Assembly: GCA_021498095.1 (NCBI GenBank)
Contig: JAIZWK010000001.1
Span: 450,001-482,000, forward strand
DNA length: 32,000 bases
Reading direction: 5' to 3'
DNA from: Candidatus Harpocratesius repetitus
Lineage (GTDB): Archaea > Asgardarchaeota > Lokiarchaeia > Sigyniarchaeales > Promethearchaeaceae
Part shown: one piece after another, positions 16,942 to 29,813 of the stretch
How the letters are laid out: the number at the start of each line of letters is the position of its first letter
Numbering within the stretch: position 1 is the stretch's first letter
Notes under the pieces: model-generated
Database searches by the model: none
Seen by the model: the letters and a program-made list of their open reading frames with translations, nothing else
What the model was told of the DNA's origin: nothing
Program-made: the position numbers and the translations under genes

Positions 16942-17463
16942 TTAAACGCGATCATCCAAAATTCCACCACAATGAGGACAATGACGGCCGTGTGCAATTT
17001 TTTCCCATTGTTTTCCAAATTTTTCCTTTAACTTTGTATTTAAATCGGATAAATCACTTGGAATAATTTCCATCATTGAGAGATGGTTAGTTCGATAAAA
17101 TTTACGCTTTTTTTCCATAGTTTCTTTATATTTTTTTCCTGAAAATCCAAAGAATTCCAAATAAAGATCTAGATCAGGCAAATACCAATCATATTTGTAT
17201 TGATGAGCTGCTGATTTTACAATCACATCTTCATATTTATGTGCAATTCCATTTCTGTAAAGAAAATTATCTACTAAACACTCAGAAATAGAACGTACCA
17301 CATCTCCATCCAAACATACATATCGGGAAGGATATTTTGCTTGATAGGCTTGAACAGTGCGATTTTTCTGCCACAAATTCGCAATAATAACAATTAAAAT
17401 GACTAAAATGATAATAAATCCCATTAAAAGGAGAAAAAGTTCTGTATTCCACTCCATATTCAC
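16942..17463 (-). CDS. Membrane-anchored PD-(D/E)xK-like nuclease-fold protein
   Basis: N-terminal TM helix; DGDVVRSISECLVDNFLYRNGIAHKYE...YDWYLPDLDLYLEFFG resembles the restriction-like nuclease fold; C-terminal HCPHC. Confidence 0.6.
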   Translation of the reverse strand: MNMEWNTELFLLLMGFIIILVILIVIIANLWQKNRTVQAYQAKYPSRYVCLDGDVVRSISECLVDNFLYRNGIAHKYEDVIVKSAAHQYKYDWYLPDLDLYLEFFGFSGKKYKETMEKKRKFYRTNHLSMMEIIPSDLSDLNTKLKEKFGKQWEKIAHGRHCPHCGGILDDRV

Positions 17464-17571
17464 GATATATTTCCAACTCTATTTAAATTCATAGTTCTCT
17501 TCATTCTTAATCTTGAAATTTTCAATTGAAAAATACATAGCACTTAAAAAGGATTTAAATTGATTATTTAT

Positions 17572-17860
17572 GAGCTTTTATCAACATTTGATAGATTGAT
17601 AAAAAAATAAAAATCATGCATAATTTACGCATTTACCAACATTCCATCCAAATTTGAAATTTGTCGATTAGAAATTTAGAACTTTTTTTATCAAATTCAA
17701 CTATAATATGATTAAAAATAGTCAAAAATCGACCCATAATTATATTTTTTAAAGTTCATTTTTGCCGACTGAAATAATTCTTGGATAGAATTGATTATTG
17801 TCGGAAAATGAAAGATTAAAATGGCAATTCAGTCAAAAATAAAGAAGTTGCTAGAACCTC
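17572..17860 (-). mobile_element. MITE copy A (289 bp)
   Basis: Ends GAGGTTCTAGCAAC / GAGCTTTTATCAAC (11/14 inverted match); perfect 4-bp TSD TTAT (17568-17571 and 17861-17864); alignable along its length with 20512-20798 and 29211-29813; no ORF. Confidence 0.8.
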
Positions 17861-17889
17861 TTATAACAAATTTTATTAAAATGAAAATT

Positions 17890-18498
17890 CTAAAAATTAA
17901 GCTCCTTTTTTATTTTTTTTATTAATTGAATTTCTGAATCTTCTTTTAATTTACTTAAACCAGGGCCTATTGAATGTCGATATTTATGAAAAATACTCTT
18001 TTGCGCTATATTTCTATCTAAATTTGTTATTTTATGCATCACAATTTGTGCAATTCTTAATCCAGGATATATCTTTATTGGAATGTTTCCGACATTTTTG
18101 AGTTCTAGTGTAATTACACCTGAAAATTCAGGATTAATTATAGTGGCAGTGGCAATTATTAAACCTAATCTACCCCATGATGATCGTCCAATGATGTAAG
18201 CCATGATATTACTTGGTAATTTAATAAATTCAAGGGTTGTACCAAGAATGAATTGATTAGGATGAAGAGTTATAGATTCTCCAATCTTTTTCTTTACATT
18301 CACTGCAGGCATTTCATGATGTATTTTCCCAATTGGGTCAAAATTAGAAATTTGATGCTGAGTATAAAAATAAAACTCAGTTCCTAATCTTAAATCTACA
18401 GAAGAATCTTGAATTTGTTTTTCAAAAATTAGTGGTGTAATTGTAAGTCTTTTTTCTCTAAGGAGATTAATTATTTCCTCTTTATTCAATATCATCAT
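17890..18498 (-). CDS. dcd: dCTP deaminase (trimeric dUTPase fold), variant active-site loop
   Basis: SSVDLRLG, LHPNQFILGTTLEFIKLP, GRSSWGRLGL, GVITLELKNVG..PIKIYPGLRIAQI. SD GAGGAG just upstream. Confidence 0.88.
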   Translation of the reverse strand: MMILNKEEIINLLREKRLTITPLIFEKQIQDSSVDLRLGTEFYFYTQHQISNFDPIGKIHHEMPAVNVKKKIGESITLHPNQFILGTTLEFIKLPSNIMAYIIGRSSWGRLGLIIATATIINPEFSGVITLELKNVGNIPIKIYPGLRIAQIVMHKITNLDRNIAQKSIFHKYRHSIGPGLSKLKEDSEIQLIKKIKKELNF

Positions 18499-18507
18499 TT
18501 ATCTCCT

Positions 18508-19803
18508 CTATCGATTTCTTAAAAATAAACTTTTAATGAATGAATTTTCAATTGACTTGAGTAATAAGTCAATTGTTGTTTGGTTATAATTTCCATTATT
18601 TTCTATTAGAAAAAACCATGCAGCATTTATAATTGAGGCAAAATTGACAGGAATAGGTAAAATTTCTCCAGATCGGAATATTTCACTAGGAGGAACATTT
18701 CTCTTGAGAGTATCTTTCAATTCATTAATAGTTTCTTCTTCGAATTGAAAAGATATTTTGTTAGGAAATTCAAAGTCAATTTTATCCTTAATTATTGGAC
18801 TTATTTCTTCAAAAAGATCCCAATATTCAAAATACTCTCTTTCATTTGAAAAAAGTTTAGGTTTTTTAAATATGAAATCTGTATTTTTTATTGCTTGATT
18901 TATTAGTGAGTTAAGATTGGAATTGTTGACGGAATTCATGAAATCTTCTATCCAATTTTTTCTCAATATTCGCATTCTTAACCAATTTGGAGGATGACTC
19001 TCACTTGAATCATCGTTTCCCTTTACTTCAGCCATTACAAAACAAAAAGACAAAAAATAAGGAAATCCAACGATCTTTATGGCTATATAATCCGCGATAA
19101 ATTCTCTGAGCCATTTTTTGAAAATTTGACTATATTTTTCAATAAATCTAGCAAATTCTATTAAATTTGATTTTCCTCTGATTTTCTTTCTTATTTTTTC
19201 AATCATTTTTGTTTTAATTTCATCTATTTTCTCAATATTTTCTGAATATCGATAATAAGAGTCCATAAAATGACCAATTTCATGAAATAATAATGTTAAA
19301 TGAAAAATATCATCCTTAAAATACTTAGGAAGGATTACTAAGAAGTAATTATTTGAAATACCCACATTTTTAAGTAGGTTTCTAAGATTTACTTCATAAT
19401 AATTGAGATCTTCACAAGAATTAATTATAATTCCGATGTTATCAGCTAATTTATTAATAGTATCTTCAATTAAATAGAAAACTGATGGATTAAAATCAGT
19501 TGTAGCAGAGTTTTCTATGAAATTTAAAATAGTTGAAAGATTATTTACAATCTTTATATAAATTAATAGATTTTGATGTCTATCTGAAATATTTTTATTT
19601 TTAATATGAGTTTTTTGTATTTCATGAAATTCTTTATTATATTGTGTTAGTTTTTCTTCTATCTCTATTAAAAGAGAACTGGATGAATTGGGCAAATAAT
19701 GATTATTTCTTAAGAAATTAATACGGTTTGAAAGGTTATTTACAATATTTTCTAGCGATTTTTCTAAAAGCTCTATAAAAAAAAGAGAAATTTTCATAAT
19801 CAT
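18508..19803 (-). CDS. Soluble HExxH zinc-metallopeptidase-like (gluzincin-type) protein
   Basis: LLFHEIGH, downstream REFIAD (third ligand E) and SHPPNWLR (HP..R as in M48-type peptidases); no TM helix or signal peptide; ends 9 nt before dcd. Confidence 0.7.
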   Translation of the reverse strand: MIMKISLFFIELLEKSLENIVNNLSNRINFLRNNHYLPNSSSSLLIEIEEKLTQYNKEFHEIQKTHIKNKNISDRHQNLLIYIKIVNNLSTILNFIENSATTDFNPSVFYLIEDTINKLADNIGIIINSCEDLNYYEVNLRNLLKNVGISNNYFLVILPKYFKDDIFHLTLLFHEIGHFMDSYYRYSENIEKIDEIKTKMIEKIRKKIRGKSNLIEFARFIEKYSQIFKKWLREFIADYIAIKIVGFPYFLSFCFVMAEVKGNDDSSESHPPNWLRMRILRKNWIEDFMNSVNNSNLNSLINQAIKNTDFIFKKPKLFSNEREYFEYWDLFEEISPIIKDKIDFEFPNKISFQFEEETINELKDTLKRNVPPSEIFRSGEILPIPVNFASIINAAWFFLIENNGNYNQTTIDLLLKSIENSFIKSLFLRNR

Positions 19804-20264
19804 AATTCCTTCAAAAACTTGTTATTTTTATTAATTTGCTTTATTTGAAATGCTAACAACTCATTAAAAAATTTTTTAACTTCTTTCAATTCACATGGTT
19901 TGATTTTTTTTTTTTTTTTTGCATTCACAAGACAAGATTTTAATTTAAGAACTTGAGATTCAATTTTTTCTTTGATATCATTACAATTTTTTTTCGGATC
20001 TGAGATCAAATTTAACATAATAATTGCCCTGTCTAGTGATTGAAGAGAATTGTTTGAAAGTAAATTATATGATTCAAAATCATTATCAGTAGTTTTTTTA
20101 ATTATTTCAGCACCCTCTAAAATCTGATCAATGTATTCTATTCCAAACTTAATTATATCTTCAAGTTCTTTATTTTCTATCGTTCTTTCTTCAGAAATTA
20201 ACCAATTTAACTTGTTAATCTGATAAACATCTGAAAATTCTTTATTTGGTACATAATTGTACAT
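19800..20264 (-). CDS. Hypothetical alpha-helical protein, first gene of the HExxH-dcd operon
   Basis: 154-aa ORF with an ATGA overlap into the next gene; contains an A17 run encoding KKKKK. Confidence 0.65.
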   Translation of the reverse strand: MYNYVPNKEFSDVYQINKLNWLISEERTIENKELEDIIKFGIEYIDQILEGAEIIKKTTDNDFESYNLLSNNSLQSLDRAIIMLNLISDPKKNCNDIKEKIESQVLKLKSCLVNAKKKKKIKPCELKEVKKFFNELLAFQIKQINKNNKFLKEL

Positions 20265-20511
20265 ACTCTCACCAAATTTAATACTATTTAAAGTCCTAAT
20301 AATACTTTAGAGCATAATGTATTTAAGTGTATTGCATTCTGGTTGAAATATGATGATTTTTCATAAATATGAAGAGAAAAATGAGTGAGATCATAGATGT
20401 CTACAATTATATTAATTTCTTCCTATCTATGAGGGTTTTTCCCCAATCAATAAGGCAATTAAAACTTCTTTTCATAGTCAAAAAAAAGTATCATACAATT
20501 TCAATTTATAT

Positions 20512-20798
20512 GAGGTTCTAACAACTTCTTTATTTTTGACTGAATTAGAATTTCTATATTTCATTCTTCGACATTAATCAAATTTTTCTTTCAATTATTT
20601 CAGTCGGTAAAAATAAGACTTAGAAAATATAATTACGATTCGATTTTTGATGATTTTTAATTGAAATATTATTGAATTTGATAACAATGTTTCTAAATTT
20701 TTAGTCGACAGATTTCAAATTGGGTGGAATATTGGTAAAAACGTAAACTAAGCAGAATTTTTAATTTTTTATCAATCTATCAAATGTTGATAAAGCTC
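20512..20798 (+). mobile_element. MITE copy B (287 bp, more diverged)
   Basis: Same GAGG...GCTC ends and internal blocks as copy A; flanks ATAT / ACAT (3/4 match). Confidence 0.75.
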
Positions 20799-20929
20799 AC
20801 ATATTAAAATAATTATTTATAATGAAAGAAAGATTAAACTATATTTTTTATTACCTTTATTTATCTATCTTCTATCATTTAATCTTTTAAAGAATTTTTA
20901 AACGAACAAAATACACTTCTGGTTAAGAA

Positions 20930-22096
20930 ATGAACACCATAAATTATTTTAAATCGGTTTTCCTAATGGTACCCAGAGTGAGTTCAGTGAAAGAATTTAA
21001 GCAAAAAATTCAAGAATTACGCGATAGGCTTGATTTTGATAATGGAACTGCCCAAAAAAATAAAACACTGTTGTTGACGCTAAAAGATCTTTGTCAATCC
21101 ACACTAGAAGAGACAAATGATCAAAGCCTTAAAGAATTTATATCCCAAGAATTAAAACGCATTGAGAGAGATATGACAAAAATCAAGGGAATCAGTCATG
21201 ATTTAAAATCAAGCATCCCTGGGAGATCTTCAACGTCATTTGATAATATATTCATACCAAAACGACCCCCAAAGGAGGCACTTACTTCAATTCAAGTAGG
21301 GGGATTCGATCCAAGTAGTTCCCCGATTTTACGAAAACTATCACAAAAATCTGTTTTTGCTTCTAAATCTCTAAAAAATAAAACTTACAAGAAAGTTGAA
21401 CAATCAACAGACAAATTTTCAAATCAATCGGTAATAAAACAAAAGAATAATGATTATGAAGAAGAAATTCAGACAATATCTGAAAAAATTGTACAAGACA
21501 TTGAGCAAACAGATGATCTAACTTCAAATCAATCAATCAATCAAACTAAAAGTCAAACTAAAACTCAATCTACTGAAGACATTTTTGAACAAACTGAAGA
21601 ACAAATTAAAAAACTCCAATCTTCTTTGTCTGAAATTGTCTCTGAACCATTTCCTGATTCATTAAATGAAAAAGATATTAGCGAATCGAAAGAAAAACAA
21701 AAAATGCCATCAGAATCTCCTTATAAATCTGCAAAATTGATAATTTCTCAATTAGGTTTAGAAATTCAATTAAATTTTGATCAGGCAACATATCGAATTG
21801 GTAGAAACCTATTTACAACTATAGAAATTCCTATTGAATTACCTGATAATTTCTTTGAACCTATAATTCCACTTTCAAATGAATCTGAAAAACCTTCAGA
21901 GCATTGTGTGATTGAACAATCTAAAAGGGGAGTTTTTCGTATCAAAGATCAAGCTAATCTTCAAAAAACATACATGAATAATCAATTTCTAACTTCAGAA
22001 GGATTAGATCTCCATGACGGGGATACTTTTATCCTCCCTGTGCTTATCAATGATCAATTAGCATCCCTAAGTATCGAATTTCGAATTTTGGATTAA
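20930..22096 (+). CDS. Protein with N-terminal helical bundle, low-complexity linker and C-terminal FHA-like domain
   Basis: C-terminal YRIGRN...SEHCVIEQ...FRIKD...TYMNNQFL...LHDGDTFIL matches the FHA pattern; the middle is Q/S/T/E-rich. Confidence 0.65.
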   Translation: MNTINYFKSVFLMVPRVSSVKEFKQKIQELRDRLDFDNGTAQKNKTLLLTLKDLCQSTLEETNDQSLKEFISQELKRIERDMTKIKGISHDLKSSIPGRSSTSFDNIFIPKRPPKEALTSIQVGGFDPSSSPILRKLSQKSVFASKSLKNKTYKKVEQSTDKFSNQSVIKQKNNDYEEEIQTISEKIVQDIEQTDDLTSNQSINQTKSQTKTQSTEDIFEQTEEQIKKLQSSLSEIVSEPFPDSLNEKDISESKEKQKMPSESPYKSAKLIISQLGLEIQLNFDQATYRIGRNLFTTIEIPIELPDNFFEPIIPLSNESEKPSEHCVIEQSKRGVFRIKDQANLQKTYMNNQFLTSEGLDLHDGDTFILPVLINDQLASLSIEFRILD

Positions 22097-23119
22097 TTTT
22101 AGTATTTTTTTTCTTTGATGAGAAGTTAAAATCCTTTTTTCATACATTTTTTTTATAGATTCTTCTAAAAGTTGCTTTTCTGTTTTATCTTTTTGAGAAT
22201 TCTTAGCTATTTGGATTGTATCATAGAGAATTGTTATGAGAGAATCAAAACCCAACGTTTTATATCCAGATTCAATCGATGGAGGTGTCCAAGATTCCAT
22301 TATTCTTTCTTTAATTAGATTACGGTATTGCTCATTAAGCTCAAAGCCAATTCCATGCCGATTCAATAAGCGGGTCATTTTTAATGTAGTGCCTGACCCT
22401 AAAAATGGATCTACAACTGTTTCACCCACAATAGTGTGCATTTTTATTAAGCGATATGGAATATCTTCAGGAAAAGGGGCACTATGTCCAAAAAGATTTT
22501 CACCTTTTGGATTAATTTTAATCACGGGAGAAATATCATCCCAAATACACCTAACAGCCCAATGTCGCCATTCTTCTTTTGTTAATAAACTTTGATCCAT
22601 TAGTTCCTTTGACACATTGCGCGTTTTTCCTGCTGTTACAAAGGTAAAAATCTGCTCAAATGATGTATTTGAAGCAATATTGGTTGGACGGGGATAAGAA
22701 CCCCAAGATACAGTGTTAATATATGCAGATTTATCCCAATAATGCATCCCGCTTAAAAAACAGTTGTGAGATCGAAAAAATGCTTCAATATCATGCATAA
22801 TATTCTTTATAATTCTAAAATTAAATCCAGAAAGTGAAGAAGATATAGGTAATGGTTGAACATTTATACAAATCTTTCCATTTGGTTGTAATATTCTTAA
22901 ACACTCACTCCATACTCGATTTAAAGATGCGATATAATCTTGATAACTTTGACCAAAACCTATTTGCTCCCCTCCATAATCCCGTACATTCCAATATGGA
23001 GGAGAAGTGATTACTAATGTTACAGAATTATCAGGGATCATACTCATTTTTTCTGCTGATTGAAAATATACTGTCTGTCCAGCCAACTTTAGAAGATTTG
23101 TTGATGAAGAAGCACACAT
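22067..23119 (-). CDS. Solitary N4-cytosine/N6-adenine DNA methyltransferase (beta class)
   Basis: Catalytic motif IV TSPPY precedes motif I DPFLGSGTT; also HSAPFPEDIPYRLIK and GIGFELN. Confidence 0.9.
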   Translation of the reverse strand: MCASSSTNLLKLAGQTVYFQSAEKMSMIPDNSVTLVITSPPYWNVRDYGGEQIGFGQSYQDYIASLNRVWSECLRILQPNGKICINVQPLPISSSLSGFNFRIIKNIMHDIEAFFRSHNCFLSGMHYWDKSAYINTVSWGSYPRPTNIASNTSFEQIFTFVTAGKTRNVSKELMDQSLLTKEEWRHWAVRCIWDDISPVIKINPKGENLFGHSAPFPEDIPYRLIKMHTIVGETVVDPFLGSGTTLKMTRLLNRHGIGFELNEQYRNLIKERIMESWTPPSIESGYKTLGFDSLITILYDTIQIAKNSQKDKTEKQLLEESIKKMYEKRILTSHQRKKILKLIQNSKFDT

Positions 23120-29160: not shown

Positions 29161-29210
29161 CTATTCTTTTTCAAGTTTAATAAAAATTCTAAATATTATT
29201 CCAAATATAA

Positions 29211-29813
29211 GAGGTTCTAGCAACTTCTTTATTTTTGACTGAATTACCATTTTAATCTTTCATTTTCCGATAATAATCAAATGTATCAAGAATTATTTCA
29301 GTCGGCAAAAAAAACTTTAGAAAATATAATTGAGGATGTTTTATCTTTTTTAATTTAAACGCTTTTTTAAATATCATTCATATATTTCCGACTTATATCT
29401 GAAATATCGCAATTCTTTTTTTGTCGAACTCGATTTTTTCAAAGAATTTATTAAAAATTACCATCCTGTTTATAAATTCTTCAATCTGATGTCGATTTAT
29501 TATAATTTTTGATTTGCATATCTTGAATTTAGCACCTTGGTAAAATCGACAAAAAATAAGGAAGGATATTTTAGATTTAAGTCGGGAGAATTAAGATGAT
29601 GAAATGAAAAACTTCGAATCTTTAAAATTTAAAATACCCTCAATTATAAGTCGATTTTTGACTATTTTTAATCATATTATAGTTGAATTTGATAAAAAAA
29701 GTTCTAAATTTCTGATCGACAAATTTCAAATTTGGATGGAATATTAGTAAATGCGTAAATTATGCAGGATTTTTATTTTTTTTTTTTAATCTATCAAATG
29801 TTGATAAAAGCTC
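29211..29813 (+). mobile_element. MITE copy C (603 bp, long form)
   Basis: Same TIRs; perfect TSD ATAA (29207-29210, 29814-29817); carries an extra 314 bp (29332-29645) relative to copy A (603-314=289). Confidence 0.8.

Follow-up and report, generated by a model that had tools for sequence, protein, structure and literature searches.

A three-gene cassette in the genome of Candidatus Harpocratesius repetitus (Asgardarchaeota; Lokiarchaeia) is probably a mobile module, so far undescribed, that targets the pool of DNA precursors, most likely in antiviral defence. The cassette was studied in a stretch of 32,000 nucleotides (nt) from assembly GCA_021498095.1 (contig JAIZWK010000001.1, positions 450,001 to 482,000; hereafter the window), where it occupies 2.4 kb (17890-20264) as three translationally coupled genes on the minus strand. 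In order of transcription, gene 1 encodes a small helical protein, gene 2 a predicted zinc peptidase and gene 3 a deoxycytidine triphosphate (dCTP) deaminase (Dcd) of the dUTPase fold. Judged from sequence and genome comparison, a peptidase-gated, dCTP-depleting defence or abortive-infection module is given a probability of about 0.45. It is ranked ahead of a regulated housekeeping module, a toxin-antitoxin-like addiction module and mobile-element or viral nucleotide metabolism, in that order.

Conserved linkage and gene fusions

An exhaustive HMMER search with the gene 2 product yielded 189 family representatives, and the peptidase-Dcd pairing noted in an initial annotation of this DNA proved to be conserved over very large distances. 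In metagenome look-ups, with E values from 1e-135 to 2e-4, a Dcd lies directly downstream of the peptidase on the same strand in 8/8 cases, and all 17 strong Asgard peptidase matches have an adjacent Dcd. An upstream small open reading frame (ORF) of about 150 aa accompanies the pair where the contig extends far enough. Gene fusions further tie the three genes together. All five long peptidase representatives (599-739 amino acids, aa) are peptidase-Dcd fusions, and a scan of genomes for the Dcd signature added six further fused loci. A neighbour of the gene 2 model in the AlphaFold Database (AFDB), B1MMF0 (654 aa, annotated as dCTP deaminase), aligns over the first 408 residues and is a fusion of the same kind. 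In Freyarchaeia, the small protein is instead joined to the peptidase: the peptidase ORF is extended in frame at its N-terminus, and these additional residues (about 165 aa) match the gene 1 profile (hhalign, 77%, E 2e-5). These fusions in both directions suggest that the three proteins would act as one complex.

The trio is also found on an E. coli P1-like phage-plasmid and on a conjugative Bradyrhizobium plasmid, the middle proteins of which match the peptidase profile in hhalign at 98% (E 2.5e-13) and 99.8%, respectively. The E. coli trio (101, 361 and 205 aa) has the same gene order and a Dcd with 31% identity. When the plasmid collection was searched by tblastn with the window peptidase, one weak Bradyrhizobium match was obtained and the E. 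coli peptidase was missed. The genome-wide Dcd-signature scan retrieved 80 loci from Asgard archaea, Nitrososphaeria, Bacillota, Nitrospirota, Planctomycetota, Acidobacteriota, Synergistota and other phyla, of which 39 have an adjacent peptidase, 6 a fused peptidase and 35 no peptidase.

Nine weaker and shorter peptidase relatives (L036-L044; E 1e-10 to 1e-18) have no Dcd; no Pfam family was recognized among their neighbours and no alternative effector could be named. In Sulfobacillus-like Bacillota (L078:5141-5956; also L075, L088, L091, L096 and L098), a conserved ORF of about 265 aa without an HExxH motif precedes the Dcd. Its interpretation as a cryptic peptidase was rejected at an hhalign probability of 0.2%. 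In one soil metagenome (L154:2820-3454), the Dcd of the trio is split into pieces of 83 and 104 aa and a ribbon-helix-helix pair (RHH_1) lies divergently upstream; this trio is probably a decaying copy.

Insertion of the cassette

The segment that contains the cassette (17495-20924) is an insertion, since the flanking genes are directly adjacent in both same-genus genomes. In a BLAST comparison of 20 kb around the cassette with these two genomes (G001 and G002), the flanks were collinear. Neither the peptidase nor the Dcd was found in G001 or G002. In contig C53 of G002, a gene for a PD-(D/E)XK-like protein (window 16942..17463) is followed after 64 nt by a gene for an FHA protein (window 20930..), and in the window the same two genes are 3430 nt apart. 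The closest homologue of the cassette, on the unrelated metagenome contig L005 (peptidase 54% identical in protein sequence, cassette 68% in nucleotide sequence), shares solely window positions 17910-20272, and the trio there adjoins a tyrosine integrase and a series of small ORFs.

The empty sites in both congeners and the cassette-only sharing with L005 strongly support the horizontal acquisition claimed in the initial annotation. Its description of the locus was likewise accurate with respect to the coordinates of the three coupled ORFs, the ATGA stop/start overlap between genes 1 and 2 and the 9-nt gap between genes 2 and 3 (AGGAGATAA), which contains a Shine-Dalgarno-like AGGAG. The low guanine-plus-cytosine (GC) content that it had noted was also borne out, as the three ORFs together have 25.1% GC and the rest of the window 30.2%. 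Gene 1 (23.0%) and gene 2 (24.4%) are the lowest among the 19 ORFs measured in the window, and the Dcd ORF (28.1%) lies below nearly all others. Copies of a miniature inverted-repeat transposable element (MITE) do flank the cassette as described, but as separate insertions. The single-contig genome (4.36 Mb) contains 43 or more copies of this MITE family (about 290 nt), most of them 92-99% identical. Copies A and B each have their own 4-nt target duplication (TTAT/TTAT and ATAT/ACAT, respectively), are only 82% alike, and copy A is 99% identical to other copies; the MITEs are thus later, independent insertions and not the vehicle of the cassette. A composite transposon was ruled out by the separate duplications, the A/B identity and the restriction of the L005 match to the cassette.

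The deaminase and its clade

Gene 3 scores above the curated cut-offs of both TIGR02274 (149 bits; cut-off 92.8) and PF22769 (137 bits, 6.8e-40; cut-off 27), and among solved structures it is most closely related to the M. tuberculosis Dcd:Dut. Residues S106, R110 and E132 align with S111, R115 and E138 of the E. coli Dcd, which we take to be the deamination residues (Johansson et al.). This Ser/Arg/Glu set is kept in 21 of the 22 linked Dcds, the exception being L013, in which Thr replaces Glu. Maximum-likelihood analysis of 46 Dcds placed the 22 sequences that are linked or fused to a peptidase in one group with a support of 100/99. The linked Dcds share the sequence GRSSWGRLGL(I/V)I-ATAT and carry a conserved C-terminal extension, KY..S..P.FS.I..D.D.

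Comparison with solved enzymes confirmed the unusual loop to which the initial annotation had drawn attention, GLIIATATIINPEF in gene 3 corresponding to GLMVHVTAHRIDPGW in the E. coli Dcd and GLLTHSTAGFIDPGF in the M. tuberculosis enzyme. The allosteric loop (II-ATAT) has a one-residue deletion and contains no His (E. coli H121), as in the linked Dcds generally, and Asn122 replaces the motif-3 Asp (E. coli D128). Across the linked Dcds, this position is occupied by N, H, G, S, A, Q, F and rarely D. The allosteric loop of Dcd acts as a switch between an active state and an inactive state bound to deoxythymidine triphosphate (dTTP), and an Asp-to-Asn change in dUTPase abolishes hydrolysis of deoxyuridine triphosphate (dUTP) (PMC4827122). 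From the shortened loop without His and the Asp-to-Asn change, we infer that the gene 3 deaminase is monofunctional and that its feedback control by dTTP is altered or absent. The Asp-to-Asn change, which the initial annotation had stressed, is not diagnostic, and was rejected as a hallmark of the cassette because it is also found in a free-standing group of Asgard Dcds.

This widespread free-standing group (L052-L059, L061, L065, L066 and L068) has Asn or Gln at the motif-3 Asp position and a 4-residue insertion (VNPGTGxxKP), and forms its own clade. In L013 (1541-2746), the linked Dcd with Thr for the catalytic Glu is fused to a C-terminal AAA_17/AAA_18 kinase-like domain, and may be a non-deaminating variant. 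Two higher-GC relatives (L009 and L010, from G018 and G016) have a divergent Dcd of 178 aa, with Gln at the Asp position and RSRF instead of RSSW, which adjoins a gene resembling a fragment of an N6-adenine methyltransferase.

The zinc peptidase

The gene 2 protein contains an HExxH motif (HEIGH, residues 174-178; H174, E175 and H178) and, about 55 residues further on, an ExxAD motif (E234 and D238). All five residues are invariant in an alignment of 41 of the 189 family representatives. By its sequence, the HExxH...ExxAD arrangement is the pattern of gluzincins of the M48 type. The AlphaFold2 (AF2) model of the protein is confident (predicted local distance difference test, pLDDT, 90.5) and shows a bundle of three helices at the N-terminus and a helical domain at the C-terminus; the protein appears soluble. 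Its AFDB neighbours include proteins named Peptidase M48 and HEXXH-motif protein, as well as one ImmA/IrrE protein (rank 13), and the AFDB clusters named M48 match at E 3.5e-12. Searches against PDB mostly returned generic helical bundles. Foldseek placed Ste24 and ZMPSTE24 at the top of the list with weak matches (E 0.4, TM-score 0.27), and the Ste24 match in a second fold search was also weak (Z 6.7).

At the level of profiles, the gene 2 protein matched no Pfam, NCBIfam or PADLOC family, Peptidase_M48 (PF01435) included; weak Pfam M48 matches (E 0.0026) were obtained for 2 of the 41 relatives. No match to PF06114 (ImmA/IrrE) was found at E <= 0.1. An ImmA/IrrE-type (M78) peptidase acting on a helix-turn-helix (HTH) substrate was discarded on the grounds that PF06114 gave no match and that gene 1 has no HTH.

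The small helical protein and the addiction alternative

The gene 1 protein, modelled as a helical bundle (AF2, pLDDT 81.7), matched nothing in Pfam, NCBIfam or PADLOC. Fold searches gave no convincing match, with weak FliS/HEPN-like helical-bundle similarities at best, and neither profile nor fold searches recognized an HTH or other DNA-binding domain. An active HEPN was ruled out as the protein has no His residue, and a search of the Atlas features with the protein gave noise (0.80). Nearly all of the relatives that were examined nevertheless have a small ORF of 101-169 aa in the place of gene 1, and this gene is fast-evolving (15-56% identity). For a predicted complex of the peptidase with the small protein, the ipSAE values of 0.10 and 0.03 lay below the mark, and the prediction was not used as evidence. 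Gene 1 of the window contains an A17 run that is missing in the closest homologue (L005); slippage in this tract could switch the coupled operon on and off. In two genomes of family f3, similar proteins of about 140 aa (L004:1559-1981 and L012:6575-7009) are encoded divergently upstream of the trio and may represent a lineage-specific fourth component.

A small and variable partner of this kind is also what a toxin-antitoxin-like addiction module would contain, with the Dcd as toxin, the small protein as a labile antitoxin that the peptidase degrades, and any antiviral effect being secondary. Such a role fits a module that is compact, coupled, AT-rich and mobile, that is carried by plasmids and phage-plasmids, adjoins integrases and transposases, and has an RHH pair next to one of its copies. 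It is, however, at odds with the chromosomal location of the window copy, around which no recognizable element other than the MITEs was found, with the lack of a DNA-binding domain in the small protein and with the long persistence of the cassette in two Asgard lineages. The addiction module is therefore considered unlikely, and somewhat less credible than the housekeeping role discussed below.

Accessory status and the housekeeping alternative

In the order to which the window genome belongs, the cassette is accessory. Among 153 sampled genomes of this order, 146 have no Dcd match at E <= 1e-20. The remaining seven matches comprise three cassette copies (G173, G033 and G015) and four weak or variant Dcds without a peptidase (G003, G189, G016 and G018). 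Outside the order, many Asgard families have free-standing Dcds without a peptidase, and G115 has a canonical Dcd alongside the cassette. According to the initial annotation, its reading would fail if gene 3 were the sole and vertically inherited dcd or if the linkage were not conserved. Neither is the case in that form: gene 3 is the sole Dcd of the genome (the second PF22769 match is a classical Dut), but it is not vertically inherited, and the linkage is conserved. The genome also contains a candidate ComEB-like deoxycytidine monophosphate (dCMP) deaminase.

Several findings weigh against a defensive role. The peptidase-Dcd pair is present in 5/5 sampled genomes of Jordarchaeia and in 5/6 of Freyarchaeia, and it is the only strong Dcd match in the two that were checked (G155 and G157). 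In these lineages, the cassette thus looks stable and possibly housekeeping. The 35 of 80 Dcds that have the same signature and no peptidase come mainly from Sulfobacillus-like Bacillota and Synergistota. None of the three proteins matched a model in PADLOC 2.0.0, the scan that had been suggested as a check. Few known defence genes occur among the 50 immediate neighbours described below, which also include ribosomal protein L16, SpoU, RuvC and metabolic enzymes. Finally, a search of 2.9 million viral contigs (IMG/VR) recovered no Dcd of the cassette type.

Part of this evidence favours a regulated housekeeping module, in which the Dcd would supply dUTP and deoxyuridine monophosphate (dUMP) for thymidylate synthesis. 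The peptidase and the small protein would then be maturation or regulatory subunits, acting for example in trimming of the C-terminal arm or in turnover, and the cassette would have spread because it completes pyrimidine metabolism. Besides the near-fixation in Jordarchaeia and Freyarchaeia, where the cassette adjoins ribosomal protein and SpoU genes, this explanation draws on the status of gene 3 as the sole Dcd of its genome and as a member of TIGR02274 above the equivalog cut-off, and on the chromosomal setting of the same Dcd clade in Sulfobacillus. Yet both congeners do without the cassette, their site being uninterrupted, and 146 of the 153 sampled genomes of the order yield no Dcd match at the above threshold. 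A Dut and a dCMP-deaminase-like gene are already present in the window genome, and other carriers (the E. coli phage-plasmids, the conjugative plasmid and G115) either possess a canonical Dcd or can draw on one. Moreover, we know of no housekeeping Dcd that needs a peptidase. A housekeeping role is accordingly held to be improbable, although it is the most serious of the alternatives.

Defence and viral context

The immediate neighbours of 25 peptidase-linked loci (50 genes) include DrmA (DISARM), the S and R subunits of type I restriction-modification systems and mad5 (MADS), together with CHAT/WD40 and HEAT-ARM matches and an IS110 transposase. These counts were made without a matched control, and are thus only suggestive of defence. 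No match of the trio to NCBIfam NF041025 was obtained, and no description of a system combining a Dcd fold with an HExxH protein was found in the full-text literature searched.

Archaeal and bacterial viruses commonly encode stand-alone Dcds, often next to thymidylate synthase, and phage Dcds support the synthesis of DNA containing deoxyuridine (dU) (PMC12697855). The cassette could on this basis belong to the nucleotide metabolism of a mobile element or virus, its Dcd raising dUTP and dTTP to serve a genome that is AT-rich or contains dU. The viral Dcds recovered, however, reach at most about 36% identity and are not linked to a peptidase. The absence of cassette-type Dcds from the viral contigs and of virus genes around the window copy further speaks against viral metabolism, which is regarded as very unlikely.

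Proposed mechanism

The defence reading, which we prefer, draws on several lines of evidence. The conservation of catalytic residues in both enzymes suggests that both activities matter, and mobility, patchiness, AT-richness and accessory status point to a function in conflict or to a selfish one. With the established precedent of antiviral dCTP deamination by unrelated enzymes, a peptidase-gated module that depletes dCTP becomes the most economical reading. Of the horizontally acquired, protease-gated nucleotide-depletion system that was initially proposed, the acquisition and the linkage are upheld, and the role is retained as a conditional proposal.

In this proposal, the specialized Dcd would be the effector, and would be kept harmless in the resting cell. 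Owing to its shortened allosteric loop, it probably escapes feedback control by dTTP. Upon a trigger, most plausibly virus infection, the M48-like peptidase would release the deaminase by cutting one of two proteins, the small helical protein or the Dcd at its conserved C-terminal extension. Both the extension and the fast-evolving gene 1 protein are candidate cleavage targets. The released Dcd would convert dCTP to dUTP, which the host Dut would turn into dUMP. The invader, and perhaps the cell as well, would then stall in replication through a shortage of dCTP, uracil in DNA or both.

A bolder version, which we regard as unlikely, is that of a pan-prokaryotic immune module, ranging from E. 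coli phage-plasmids to Asgard archaea and the first with a dUTPase-fold effector, that would cause abortive infection by uracil poisoning and not by mere starvation. Here, the peptidase would license a feedback-insensitive Dcd that lacks the Asp for dUTP hydrolysis, and because of these two properties activation would both drain dCTP and flood the cell with dUTP. Archaeal family-B polymerases stall on uracil templates, and the archaeal version of the module, if this were true, would exploit such stalling.

Relation to known systems and significance

With housekeeping Dcd and Dcd:Dut enzymes (E. coli 1xs1 and M. tuberculosis 2qxx), gene 3 shares the dUTPase fold, the family and the Ser/Arg/Glu residues. 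It differs from them in its shorter loop without His, in a motif-3 Asp position that is variable in the clade, in its C-terminal extension and in its placement in a separate clade, and in being coupled or fused to a zinc peptidase in a mobile, accessory cassette. Antiviral deamination of dCTP is an established strategy (10.1101/2021.04.26.441389; PMC10511110). The defensive dCTP deaminase (10.1101/2021.04.26.441389) and AvcD of AvcID (PMC10511110) share with the cassette the predicted outcome, starvation of viral replication. These enzymes have a zinc-dependent cytidine-deaminase fold and act as single genes or with a small RNA antitoxin, whereas the cassette Dcd has a dUTPase fold and two protein partners. 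The PADLOC dCTPdeaminase model and NF041025 describe a zinc domain of the cytidine-deaminase fold with an N-terminal kinase domain, to which the trio gives no match. The fusion of Dcd to a P-loop kinase-like domain in L013 echoes the kinase-deaminase architecture of the defensive dCTP deaminase.

The zinc peptidases of the CapP and ImmA/IrrE type resemble gene 2 in that an HExxH zincin is encoded beside the genes that it controls, and the family is among the structural neighbours; the logic of CapH and CapP has been described (PMC13373217). In contrast to them, the cassette peptidase lacks a PF06114 match and an HTH repressor partner, its ExxAD motif and best-named neighbours are M48-like, and its partner is an enzyme to which it is sometimes fused. 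M48 peptidases such as Ste24 and HtpX share HExxH...ExxAD with gene 2, and the M48 affinity is seen further in the weak Pfam matches of two relatives and in the names of the AFDB neighbours. Unlike Ste24 and HtpX, gene 2 appears soluble, with helical domains rather than a membrane barrel, and its PDB matches are weak. The trio of E. coli P1/D6-like phage-plasmids has the same gene order, a homologous peptidase and a Dcd following it, whereas the window copy is archaeal, chromosomal and MITE-flanked, with longer and very divergent proteins.

New in this analysis are an Asgard copy that is cleanly polymorphic for presence or absence, the finding that the linked Dcds are monophyletic, the fusion of gene 1 with the peptidase, and the counter-evidence from lineages in which the pair is fixed or the Dcd has no peptidase. 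If the module is defensive, antiviral dCTP deamination would have arisen twice, on unrelated enzyme folds, and a protease-licensed metabolic effector would be added to prokaryotic immunity. The cassette would also be a rare candidate for an immune module common to Bacteria and Asgard archaea. Since a homologue exists on an E. coli plasmid, the idea lends itself to a direct test by a standard phage challenge. If the module is instead housekeeping, it would reveal a hitherto unknown peptidase-dependent layer of control over pyrimidine deoxynucleotide synthesis.

Features of the locus and neighbouring genes

The features of the cassette and its surroundings are collected in Table 1. Upstream of gene 1, reading of the sequence located a TATA-like word, TTTAAATA, at 20285-20292, and GGTGA precedes the ATG. 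TTTAAATA is a candidate promoter word, comparable words being frequent in DNA of 25% GC.

Table 1. Positions of the cassette genes and associated features in the window.
Feature	Position	Strand	Basis
Gene 1, 154-aa all-helical protein (P0003)	19800..20264	-	ORF call, AF2
Gene 2, 431-aa putative soluble M48-like zincin metallopeptidase	18508..19803	-	ORF call, invariant residues, AF2
Gene 3, 202-aa dUTPase-fold dCTP deaminase (Dcd), peptidase-linked clade	17890..18498	-	Curated profiles, tree
Non-coding region upstream of the operon	20265..20505	-	Sequence reading
MITE copy A	17572..17860	.	Own TTAT target duplication, 99% identical to other genomic copies
MITE copy B	20512..20798	.	Inverted relative to A, 82% identical to A, imperfect ATAT/ACAT duplication
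3430-nt segment (cassette and both MITEs) replacing the 64-nt spacer of G002	17495..20924	.	Genome comparison
A17 homopolymer inside gene 1	19904..19920	-	Encodes KKKKK

The flanking genes for the PD-(D/E)XK-like protein, the FHA protein and a methyltransferase are ancestral to the genus. The first of these, which adjoins the insertion site on the minus strand (16942-17463) and is syntenic in the congeners, encodes a protein of 173 aa with an N-terminal hydrophobic segment. This protein matches the C-terminal PD-(D/E)XK part of the PADLOC candidates PDC-S69 (2e-21) and HEAT_CxxC_PD-DEXK. On the other side (20930-23119), the FHA protein (388 aa) and a type II-like N4/N6 DNA methyltransferase (350 aa) are encoded by convergent genes with a 30-nt overlap, and no cognate nuclease was recognized for the methyltransferase. 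A third MITE of the window (29206-29808) is a long form of the element, which appears as two pieces in the BLAST output.

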